DNA of 62,727 nt, filler included. It is 12 parts of 12 records of this genome, joined end to end, with 100 filler letters (N's around TTAATTAATTAA, not from the genome) between each part and the next. Parts side by side here need not be neighbours in the genome. Positions count along the whole stretch, not along the records: positions 1 to 5,401 come from SRR11831586_1571; 11 more parts are not named here. One strand, written 5' to 3'. Shown here in pieces: positions 1,102 to 2,269 of the stretch. A model generated the notes under the pieces. It saw only the letters and a program-made list of their open reading frames with translations, was not told the origin of the DNA and ran no database searches. Each line of letters begins with the position of its first letter. The first letter of the stretch is position 1. The translations under genes and the position numbers were made by a program.

Positions 1102-2229
1102 ATGGAATCGCTCTCAGAAGGAACCACAGCAGGCTACCAGCAAATCCACGACGGTATTATTCATCTGGTCGATAGCGCCCGGACGGAAACGGTACGTAGC
1201 GTTAACGCGTTAATGACCGCGACGTACCAGGAAATTGGCCGACGAATTGTCGAATTTGAACAAGGTGGCGAGGCCAGGGCTGCGTATGGTGCGCAGCTAA
1301 TCAAGCGACTATCAAAGGATTTATGTCTAAGGTATAAGCGTGGGTTCTCTGCAAAAAACTTACGCCAAATGAGGCTTTTTTACCTCTTTTTTCAACATGT
1401 TGAAATTCACCAGACAATGTCTGGCGAATTAACACCATTGGGAATTCCGCAGACACCGTCTGCAGAATTCCCATCGGCAAAGATTTGGCAGACGCTGTCT
1501 GCCAAATCTTTCCCCTTGCCCAGGTCCACCTACGTCCGTTTACTTTCCGTTAAAAACGCTGACGCCCGCAGCTTTTATGAAAAAGAGACGCTCCGCTGTG
1601 GCTGGTCTGTTCGCCAGCTAGAGCGGCAAATTGCGACCCAGTTTTATGAGCGGACACTACTGTCACATGACAAATCAGCCATGCTGCAACAACACGCTCC
1701 TGCCGAGACGCATATTCTTCCGCAACAGGCGATACGCGATCCCTTTGTGCTCGAATTTCTGGAATTGAAAGATGAATATTCAGAATCCGATTTTGAGGAG
1801 GCGCTGATCAACCACCTGATGGATTTCATGCTGGAACTTGGGGATGATTTTGCCTTTGTTGGTCGGCAGCGAAGGTTACGCATTGATGACAACTGGTTTC
1901 GTGTCGATCTGCTGTTTTTCCACCGCCGTTTACGCTGCCTGCTAATCGTCGATCTAAAAGTGGGCAAATTCAGCTATAGCGATGCCGGACAGATGAATAT
2001 GTATCTCAACTACGCCAAAGAGCACTGGACGCTACCGGATGAAAATCCGCCCATCGGTCTGGTTCTCTGTGCAGAGAAAGGAGCCGGAGAAGCGCATTAT
2101 GCTCTGGCAGGTTTGCCTAACACCGTTCTGGCAAGCGAATATAAGATGCAACTACCTGATGAGAAACGACTCGCAGATGAACTCGTTCGAACACAGGCGG
2201 TGCTAGAGGAAGGCTATAGACGCCGTTAA
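1102..2229 (+). CDS. yhcG: DUF1016 family PD-(D/E)XK nuclease-domain protein YhcG
   Basis: 375 aa with motifs WSVRQLERQI, RDPFVLEFL, VDLLFFHRRLRCLLIVDLK, GQMNMYLNY and ENPPIGLVLC. Confidence 0.93.
   Translation: MESLSEGTTAGYQQIHDGIIHLVDSARTETVRSVNALMTATYQEIGRRIVEFEQGGEARAAYGAQLIKRLSKDLCLRYKRGFSAKNLRQMRLFYLFFQHVEIHQTMSGELTPLGIPQTPSAEFPSAKIWQTLSAKSFPLPRSTYVRLLSVKNADARSFYEKETLRCGWSVRQLERQIATQFYERTLLSHDKSAMLQQHAPAETHILPQQAIRDPFVLEFLELKDEYSESDFEEALINHLMDFMLELGDDFAFVGRQRRLRIDDNWFRVDLLFFHRRLRCLLIVDLKVGKFSYSDAGQMNMYLNYAKEHWTLPDENPPIGLVLCAEKGAGEAHYALAGLPNTVLASEYKMQLPDEKRLADELVRTQAVLEEGYRRR
1405..1507. repeat. Intragenic array of three 25-bp palindromes (ATT-N3-CAGAC-RNY-GTCTG-N3-AAT), period 39 bp
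   Basis: Units at 1405-1429, 1444-1468 and 1483-1507 with centres 1417, 1456 and 1495, separated by 14-bp unique spacers. Confidence 0.92.
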
Positions 2230-2244
2230 TTTCAGCGGTTTCGA

Positions 2245-2269
2245 ATTCTGCAGACAGTGTCTGCAGAAT
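2245..2269. repeat. Fourth, perfect copy of the yhcG palindrome (ATTCTGCAGACA-G-TGTCTGCAGAAT), outside the CDS
   Basis: Perfect 12-bp arms with a 1-nt centre, 15 bp downstream of the yhcG stop codon. Confidence 0.92.

Follow-up and report, generated by a model that had tools for sequence, protein, structure and literature searches.

A conserved in-frame palindrome in yhcG and in the genes of the DUF1016 family

Background

The yhcG gene of Escherichia coli raises the question of why a protein-coding sequence should be self-complementary at several places in a row. In the window, by which we mean the whole 62,727-nt stretch of DNA analysed here (12 parts from 12 records of one genome, joined by filler), three palindromes of 25 bp follow each other inside this gene, which codes for a member of the DUF1016/YhcG family, and a fourth stands alone past its stop codon. 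A preliminary description of the window took them for cis-acting sites of a YhcG system that could serve as operator or target sites, as units of an expandable array or as recombination sites. We find that the palindrome is a cis element of the whole DUF1016/YhcG family, a dyad of 24-25 nt with 11-13 pairing positions per arm and 0-3 central bases. Full-text literature searches for DUF1016 or YhcG together with palindrome or hairpin found no description of such an element, supplements being covered for PMC7815308 alone.

The palindromes of the yhcG locus

All four palindromes of the form ATT-N3-CAGAC-N3-GTCTG-N3-AAT are present where they had been reported (Table 1), and the exact period claimed for them holds, with start-to-start spacings of 39, 39 and then 762 bp. 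The three in-gene copies lie in frame 0 and encode IHQTMSGEL, IPQTPSAEF and IWQTLSAKS, as had been read from the sequence, and the fourth is indeed a perfect copy in non-coding DNA; we call such extragenic copies orphans. Two earlier statements on symmetry hold in part. The N3 arms, described as self-complementary throughout, are so in copies 3 and 4 (11/11 arm pairs), whereas copies 1 and 2 each contain one A-C mismatch in the middle of N3 (10/11). The extension of symmetry to about 16 bp per arm in copies 2 and 3 amounts to 15 pairs in copy 3 and to 16 positions with one mismatch in copy 2.

These palindromes are far from chance expectation. Their 13-nt core occurs four times in the window against 0.05 expected, and at least four times in none of 100 shuffles, while shuffled windows contain 0-2 palindromes of the 11-3-11 build per 62.7 kb. 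Folded as RNA, the single hairpins reach -12.9 to -24.1 kcal/mol (z -4.1 to -7.5), and the array of three -61.8 kcal/mol (z -10.1), or -38.8 kcal/mol (z -10.5) when folded as DNA. A search of Rfam 15 gave no match to a described family, the only hit being a chance-level one to mir-266 (21 bits vs a gathering score of 80, E 0.5). No intrinsic terminator was called at any of the four copies in a scan of positions 900-2500, and no T run follows them.

Presence throughout the DUF1016 family

The element was sought in two samples of the family. The first comprised 80 loci encoding relatives of YhcG with 36-100% identity, 70 of them with full-length genes, from Enterobacteriaceae, Planctomycetota, Acidobacteriota, Cyanobacteria, Bacteroidota, Bdellovibrionales and several archaeal groups. 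In 65 of the 70 full-length loci a motif-anchored scan found a palindrome in frame 0 at homologous codons whose arms pair at 8 or more of 11 positions (45 with at least 10 pairs, 30 perfect); the other five (L074, L037, L044, L050 and L067) have 9-11 of 11 pairs in the same place and had been missed by the peptide pattern. The second, independent sample consisted of 30 loci from a search of 401 Pseudomonadota genomes with the DUF1016_N profile (PF17761). At least 9 of 11 pairs were present in 26 of these, and together with L107 (8 pairs), L095 and L105 (9 pairs each) the total reaches 29 of 30, L099 giving no call. The arms in this sample are unrelated to those of E. coli and so are the encoded peptides, for example IVQQAVGQ, IRDAVRTE, ILVSLIRE, IWKSVISK and KVAALPRL. 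In every case the codons for L-x-W-x-H of DUF1016_N follow directly 3' of the palindrome. All three phage homologues (27-33% identity) have it as well: a perfect palindrome in Wolbachia phage WO, two or three copies in tandem on one scaffold, and in one case a perfect palindrome with an even length of 24 bp. Palindromes with at least 10 of 11 pairs occur at 0.737 per kb inside DUF1016 open reading frames (ORFs) and at 0.076 per kb outside them.

A single copy per gene is the rule (49/65 loci). The element is special neither to E. coli yhcG nor to an array, and what E. coli shows is a feature that the family has in single copy, elaborated locally into an array. The supposition that the number of units varies proved correct: 16 of the 65 loci, from several phyla and including one archaeon, have 2-3 in-gene copies, with a spacing of 30-69 bp that is always a multiple of 3. 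Where DUF1016 paralogues stand in tandem (L057, L076, L082), each has its own, different palindrome.

Extragenic copies, which the preliminary description had presented as a test of its proposal, exist in other lineages but are rare outside Escherichia, being found only at L045, L050 and L109. Among the first-sample full-length loci, a scan of the 90 nt past the stop codon found family-type orphans only in Escherichia, L045 and L050. In two Gemmataceae genes the orphan lies 15-22 nt past the stop, and one of them (L045) is of the type of another subfamily and is followed by about 16 relic codons; the orphan of L109, also of another subfamily's type, lies upstream of the DUF1016 gene. Possible traces of exchange at the palindrome are present within genes as well. 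The likeness of L089 to its relatives begins at the palindrome, identity being about 20% in the part preceding it and about 50% in the part that follows, and this gene is the single clear outlier when N- and C-terminal parts are compared; five of eight split family matches, as counted from the Pseudomonadota match list, break at the profile position of the palindrome.

No constant partner gene was found among 54 DUF1016 loci, of which about 10 lie inside type I or type III restriction-modification operons and three beside a tyrosine recombinase. The former number agrees with the enrichment of DUF1016 beside inversion-targeted restriction-modification genes stated in a part of PMC9881135.

Selection on the nucleic acid

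The preliminary description held that protein-level selection does not explain the dyad, and proposed that its symmetry be scored against synonymous controls. This comparison, with synonymous codons drawn from each gene's own usage, gave 10.08 arm pairs observed against 5.81 expected over 65 loci, the share of resamples reaching the observed pairing having a median of 0.001 and a maximum of 0.057. Covariation points the same way. In a set of 93 distinct copies, each of the 13 pairs has changed at both of its positions, and double changes fill 234 cells against 79 in shuffles (none of 500 as high) and 23-51 when the partner position is slid. In a Bacteroidota clade, for example, the inner arms have changed on both sides and the protein reads QSxT in place of QTxS, position 2 of the peptide varies together with residues 7-8, out of codon register, and pairing is kept through amino-acid replacements such as IVQQAVGQ, IRDAVRTE and IWKSVISK.

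Synonymous sites tell of constraint within clades. Where the residue is identical, the codon is also identical more often in the palindrome than in the rest of the gene, with frequencies of 0.94 vs 0.59 in the Bacteroidota type (n=13), 0.82 vs 0.47 in the K/N type (n=13) and 0.93 vs 0.58 in Enterobacteriaceae without Escherichia (n=9), and in these three clades the palindrome window is one of the top 1-5 for synonymous conservation out of 308-368 windows per gene. This suppression of synonymous change argues for purifying selection, because copying between the arms would by itself preserve complementarity without slowing change. Codon resampling, covariation that alters amino acids and suppressed synonymous change thus bear out the original claim: selection acts on DNA or RNA and keeps the arms complementary, while the encoded peptide is free to change.

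A palindrome with 10 of 11 pairs also recurs at one place within gltD, about 1.2 kb upstream of yhcG, in several Enterobacteriaceae (L016, L021, L025-L027), where it probably reflects ordinary conservation among close relatives; recurrence among close kin is no evidence of selection on structure.

Rearrangements between gltD and nanQ in Escherichia

A fifth copy of the palindrome lies outside the window, at G001:C1:3353119-3353143 in a related genome (locus L003/L128), 14 nt past the stop of gltD and about 7.5 kb upstream. With it, four arrangements of the region between gltD and nanQ could be described, here called the K-12, O157, yhcG-less and B types. The K-12 type reads gltD, copy, gltF to yhcF, yhcG with three copies, copy, nanQ, the gltD copy and the yhcG-distal copy being 8.3 kb apart. 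The O157 type reads gltD, yhcG, copy, nanQ; it has lost copies 2 and 3 to an out-of-frame deletion of 80 bp, and its yhcG is annotated as frameshifted. According to a passage of PMC3514354, the length polymorphism of yhcG is part of the LSPA-6 typing assay for O157:H7.

A 161-bp probe for the yhcG-less type was covered over at least 80% of its length in 947 of 5426 genomes; this type has a single copy in a 67-bp spacer. The left flank of this copy is that of the gltD copy of K-12 and its right flank that of the yhcG-distal copy, so the two types differ by the 8.3-kb segment bounded by two palindromes. In the B type, found in 726 of the 5426 genomes, everything 3' of copy 3, orphan included, is replaced by a 454-bp segment (L011:772-1225), the left junction falling exactly at the 3' end of copy 3. 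This segment takes the place of the 3' two thirds of yhcG and contains an ORF of 101 aa annotated as a transposase. We considered it as a multi-copy mobile element and rejected this, as it is single-copy in the 726 genomes and the ORF has no Pfam match. The idea that copies lie at the borders of rearrangements is thus upheld by the yhcG-less segment and the B-type junction.

Within the gene, E. coli alleles carry one, two or three copies, and the K-12 allele and a 92% allele (L009) share 58-70% identity in 1342-1580 against 97-100% in the remaining gene. In Escherichia a unit of 36-39 bp has been tandemly multiplied to 1-3 copies, in a stretch where alleles are hypervariable. Within a strain, the in-gene copies and the orphans are alike. 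The orphans do not appear to be relics of a second yhcG, since their similarity is confined to the 25-29 nt of the palindrome and any extension is weak (E ~0.09), although L045 does keep its relic codons. The element accounts for the yhcG polymorphism used in LSPA-6 typing and for the structure of three common gltD-nanQ haplotypes.

Analogous palindromes in RhuM and Bro-N genes

Palindromes of similar design are present in two other gene families. In RhuM (PF13310, loci L142-L171), 26 of 30 loci have an in-frame palindrome of 25 nt with at least 10 of 11 pairs, near position 1503 of the locus. It stands at an offset of -1 to +2 from the Pfam match, in frame 2, and encodes approximately T-I-R-K-F-R-I-V within residues 59-130, directly following an N-terminal part that, judged by eye, looks like a helix-turn-helix. 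The base at its centre is mostly A (15) or T (13), with G in 2, and the ends of the loop are complementary in 23 of 30, a few of these rows being off-target. In Bro-N (PF02498, loci L172-L201) 11 of 29 loci have a palindrome with at least 10 of 11 pairs; about 10 of these share one position, in frame 1 at an offset of 109-139 of the Pfam match. As these scans sought the 11-3-11 build only, the shared geometry is partly by design.

The palindromes of RhuM and Bro-N are like those of DUF1016 in their dyad of 11-12 + 1-3 + 11-12, their fixed in-frame place, their co-varying arms and their central symmetry, and the gene families are alike in occurring in defence islands, restriction-modification operons and prophages. 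The RhuM palindrome differs in consensus, in reading frame and in having A or T (W) rather than C or G (S) at its centre, and the DUF1016 and RhuM profiles show no detectable homology (hhalign probability 0.3%). Since RhuM and some Bro-N genes carry the element without a PD-(D/E)XK nuclease, a reading specific to the YhcG nuclease is weakened. The proposal of cis-acting sites of a YhcG system is retained as far as a nucleic-acid cis site is concerned, and is weakened in its tie to the nuclease.

It is possible, though rather doubtful, that these palindromes make up an undescribed class of cis elements, in-frame perfect dyads of 24-25 bp in at least three mobile families of defence islands and phages (DUF1016, RhuM and part of Bro-N), kept across bacteria, archaea and phages for a function independent of the host. 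Such a function might be that of a structure-specific exchange site for genes or modules, which would be a physical basis for the domain shuffling known of these families, or of a cis site for the nascent protein.

Possible roles of the element

The reading that we favour, tentatively and with less confidence than we would place in its being wrong, is that the element is a stem-forming DNA site where DUF1016 genes or modules are broken and joined, kept by selection at the level of the gene. The dyad would act on DNA, either as a hairpin on transiently single-stranded DNA or as a cruciform, and would be a preferred site of breakage and joining through which DUF1016 genes or their halves are replaced, amplified or deleted. 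Gene-level selection would keep it, as it keeps the ends of mobile elements, and the E. coli array, the orphans and the hairpins at mRNA ends would be by-products of this activity. Support comes from the 8.3-kb difference between two copies, the B-type junction at the edge of copy 3, the tandem copies in 16/65 loci, the orphans of L045 and L109, the five of eight split matches and L089.

Several points weigh against it. No recombinase or nuclease is known to act at the site. The junctions could reflect the known fragility of palindromes, a cost rather than a function. Rare recombination would be a weak source of the strong synonymous constraint within clades, which an effect on expression explains more easily. 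Furthermore, the site lies inside the gene and not at gene ends, and orphans outside Escherichia amount to three loci. An inversion of the 740-bp nuclease-coding segment, one of the events first envisaged, was not seen in the two genomes inspected out of 231 E. coli genomes with two matching places, a small number that itself counts on this side. The palindromes could serve as the inverted repeats of an inversion switch; no invertase lies beside yhcG. Both inspected genomes have IS3 insertions elsewhere in yhcG, hence not every break of the gene is at a palindrome. The pairing of 85.8% in the alignment of the 93 copies (A1) is inflated, as its rows were picked partly by palindromy, the covariation counts being less affected. 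Finally, the gltD orphan demonstrably acts at the RNA level, as an mRNA 3' end.

This last point leads to an alternative that we consider fairly unlikely, but the strongest competitor, in which the element works in RNA. A hairpin in the yhcG transcript would be a host-independent brake or barrier, through stalling of ribosomes or exonucleases or through binding of the protein to its own mRNA, and would limit a potentially toxic nuclease; the orphans would be protectors of mRNA 3' ends. The hairpins are very stable as RNA (see the folding energies above), the strong synonymous constraint fits an immediate effect on expression, and in the roughly 10/54 loci within restriction-modification operons the gene has no promoter of its own. 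For gltD, Term-seq gives a strong 3' end at 3360660 (+) with a mean read count of 956 (supplementary file 1, PMC7815308), and the gltD orphan lies in this 3'-end region, from which it follows that the hairpin acts in RNA when at a gene end. However, the Term-seq and Rho tables of the same paper contain no 3' end at the in-gene yhcG copies. Its bicyclomycin data give a Rho-dependent end inside yhcG at 3367906(+) and an antisense end at 3368581(-), which we estimate to correspond to window positions of about 1170-1180 and 1846-1856, that is, elsewhere in the gene. Nor is the orphan called as an intrinsic terminator.

The pattern of base pairing also speaks against RNA. Over 11 arm pairs in 93 copies there are 914 Watson-Crick cells, 11 G-T, 25 A-C and 73 others, and the mismatches of the RhuM palindrome comprise four G-T and seven A-C, so that G-U is not tolerated over A-C; the mismatch counts of 11 and 25 are small and come from related sequences, a further reservation about the DNA reading. 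The outer two loop bases are complementary in 62 of the 93 DUF1016 copies, which makes the palindrome really one of 12 + 1 + 12, and one homologue, the even-length one of the phage set, has no central base at all; neither feature is needed by an RNA hairpin. At the centre, C (46 copies) and G (42) far outnumber A (3) and T (2), and C and G alternate between close relatives, so both orientations of the central pair are about equally common. Central symmetry and the lack of G-U tolerance lead us to lean towards a duplex dyad, DNA hairpin or cruciform over a sense RNA.

A duplex dyad could also be an intragenic operator, bound by a symmetric dimer of the gene's own product and serving autoregulation by roadblock or looping, with a specificity that co-evolves. 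Operators within coding regions exist, for example lac O2 and that of purB. Symmetry through the centre would suit such a site, the central pair being S in 88/93 DUF1016 copies and W in 28/30 RhuM copies, in either orientation. So would the conservation of sequence within clades and its difference between clades, the apparent helix-turn-helix part just before the RhuM palindrome, and the multiple and distant copies of E. coli, which could permit looping. On the other hand, the five copies in one E. coli genome differ in N3 and yet are each (nearly) self-complementary, and one protein cannot read them all; many compensated N3 variants are present among close relatives. Natural operators are rarely perfect over 11-13 positions, and here most genes have one copy and none lies in the promoter region. 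We regard this explanation as unlikely.

Still less probable is a functionless palindrome that perpetuates itself, intrastrand template switching (quasi-palindrome correction) copying arm onto arm and producing concerted evolution without selection. Quasi-palindrome template switching is established in E. coli, and it would explain the central symmetry, the symmetric N3 at positions that nothing reads and the perfect orphans, while tandem duplications and indels show that DNA misaligns at the site. Concerted evolution, however, does not slow change, and the synonymous sites of the palindrome are the most conserved of the gene in three clades. It would not account either for a position that is the same in essentially all members of the family, be they bacterial, archaeal or from phages, or for the analogous element in RhuM; as a hotspot of gene disruption, the site also carries a cost that some benefit would have to offset.

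An expandable memory array of the clustered regularly interspaced short palindromic repeat (CRISPR) kind, or a repeat RNA neutralising the nuclease as in type III toxin-antitoxin systems, can practically be dismissed: palindromic repeats, a fixed period of 36-39 nt (ToxI repeats are of 36 nt), unique 14-nt spacers and a unit number varying between strains and lineages recall them, but there are three units at most, in frame inside the coding sequence and translated, spacers far shorter than those of CRISPR, a single copy in 49/65 loci, no Rfam match and no conserved partner gene. The sequential, memory-like addition of units that had been suggested finds no support, the 14-bp spacers being coding and the context not cas-like as judged from the neighbours yhcF and nanQ, the window not having been searched for cas genes. 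What probability remains falls to an explanation of another kind than those considered.

yhcG and its surroundings in the window

The window is of E. coli K-12, with 100% identity to strain MG1655, yhcG included. The gene codes for 375 aa and ends in TAA at 2227-2229. Both Pfam domains exceed their gathering scores and place the protein in the DUF1016/YhcG family: DUF1016_N (PF17761) at aa 19-184 (7.5e-38, 130.2 bits vs 32.8) and the PD-(D/E)XK nuclease domain YhcG_C (PF06250) at aa 208-360 (8e-57, 191.9 bits vs 32.5). It also matches the PADLOC candidate defence family PDC-S02 (2.2e-131, 436 bits). A part of PMC1189080 likens the nuclease domain of the family to archaeal Holliday-junction resolvases and DUF91. 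A sequence search found no solved structure of YhcG, and the ESM Atlas contained no model of it, feature matches all being <0.8. The gene lies between yhcF upstream and the convergent nanQ/yhcH (2289-2753, minus strand) downstream, and among the copies of its array it is copy 3 that adjoins the conserved (P)L-P-W/R-S motif of the family.

Table 1. Features of yhcG and its palindromes, in window coordinates
Feature	Position	Strand	Evidence
yhcG coding sequence, DUF1016_N + YhcG_C	1102..2229	+	ORF, Pfam, PADLOC, identity to K-12
Hypervariable stretch of yhcG around the palindrome array	1342..1580	+	K-12 vs 92% allele L009
Tandem array of three in-frame 39-bp units (14-15-nt spacer, then 25-nt palindrome)	1390..1507	+	repeat search, spacing 39 + 39; three-hairpin fold
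Palindrome copy 1, 10/11 arm pairs, codons IHQTMSGE	1405..1429	.	RNA fold -12.9 kcal/mol, z -4.8
Palindrome copy 2, 10/11 arm pairs, stem extending over 1439-1473, codons IPQTPSAE	1444..1468	.	RNA fold -22.2 kcal/mol, z -7.1
Palindrome copy 3, 11/11 arm pairs, 15-bp arms over 1479-1511, codons IWQTLSAK	1483..1507	.	RNA fold -24.1 kcal/mol, z -7.5
Orphan palindrome, perfect 12 + 1 + 12, between convergent genes	2245..2269	.	15 nt past the yhcG stop

At least two further palindromes of the 11-3-11 build are present in the window, at 12290-12314 and 8309-8333; one is perfect and the other has 10/11 pairs, and their sequences are unrelated to the yhcG copies. The stretches that read as N (about 5401-5500, 8123-8220, 15257-15355 and beyond) are masked and play no part in these findings. 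Among contigs assembled from RNA runs, those of three runs end at or near copy 1 (1358/1425, 1348 and 1416) and one run spans the region, leaving a gap of 1 nt at 1479; RNA ends cannot be read from contigs, and nothing is drawn from them. An antisense RNA, G0-10703, overlaps the 5' region of yhcG according to a part of PMC7967276.

Comparison with known systems

The element constitutes a second layer of information in coding sequence, a signal strong enough to determine which amino acids stand at about nine sites of a protein family, in two domains of life as well as in phages; we know of no other case on such a scale. Part of what Pfam displays as a "conserved motif" can thus be the shadow of a DNA or RNA element. 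A shared cis element also offers an entry point to the regulation or mobility of families of unknown function in defence islands and restriction-modification operons, such as DUF1016 (PDC-S02).

Among described repeats, the orphans are reminiscent of repetitive extragenic palindromes (REP) and bacterial interspersed mosaic elements (BIME), and of mRNA 3' ends protected by stem-loops, in being extragenic palindromes at gene 3' ends (yhcG facing nanQ, and gltD), one of them at a mapped mRNA 3' end. They differ in that the yhcG palindromes are not dispersed, the orphans derive from a coding-sequence element and there is no T tract. An assignment to REP/BIME was rejected: in the related genome G001 the core has seven sites, five of them at the gltD-yhcG locus, against five for a backwards control pattern, and the 25-nt pattern occurs in 12 of 201 Enterobacteriaceae genomes (backwards control 0), clustered at one locus each time and therefore not a dispersed repeat. 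As for the antitoxin RNA of type III systems, a ToxI-like repeat was likewise set aside, the repeats here lying inside the coding sequence and most homologues having one unit.

The integron attC sites and the ends of IS200/IS605 elements are recombination sites of folded single strands, attC being an imperfect palindrome with extrahelical bases. The element would resemble them in recognition by structure, and does so in copies that border inserted or deleted segments. It differs in its perfect stems, in lying inside a gene and in having no consistent integron integrase or HUH transposase nearby. An attC site proper does not fit the (near-)perfect stems, the location at codon 100-110 or the presence of an adjacent tyrosine recombinase in only 3/54 loci. 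Intragenic operators such as lac O2 and purB are, like the element, dyad-symmetric sites in a coding region, and the element too may be bound by a dimer; its symmetry is by contrast perfect over 11-13 positions and its sequence varies between copies of one genome.

The Rickettsia palindromic elements (RPEs) are selfish palindromic DNA of about 100-150 bp inserted in frame, with many dispersed copies per genome at non-homologous places. Like them, the element is palindromic DNA in frame inside genes and tolerated by the protein; unlike them, the yhcG element is 25 nt long, is found at one locus and occupies orthologous codons across a whole family.

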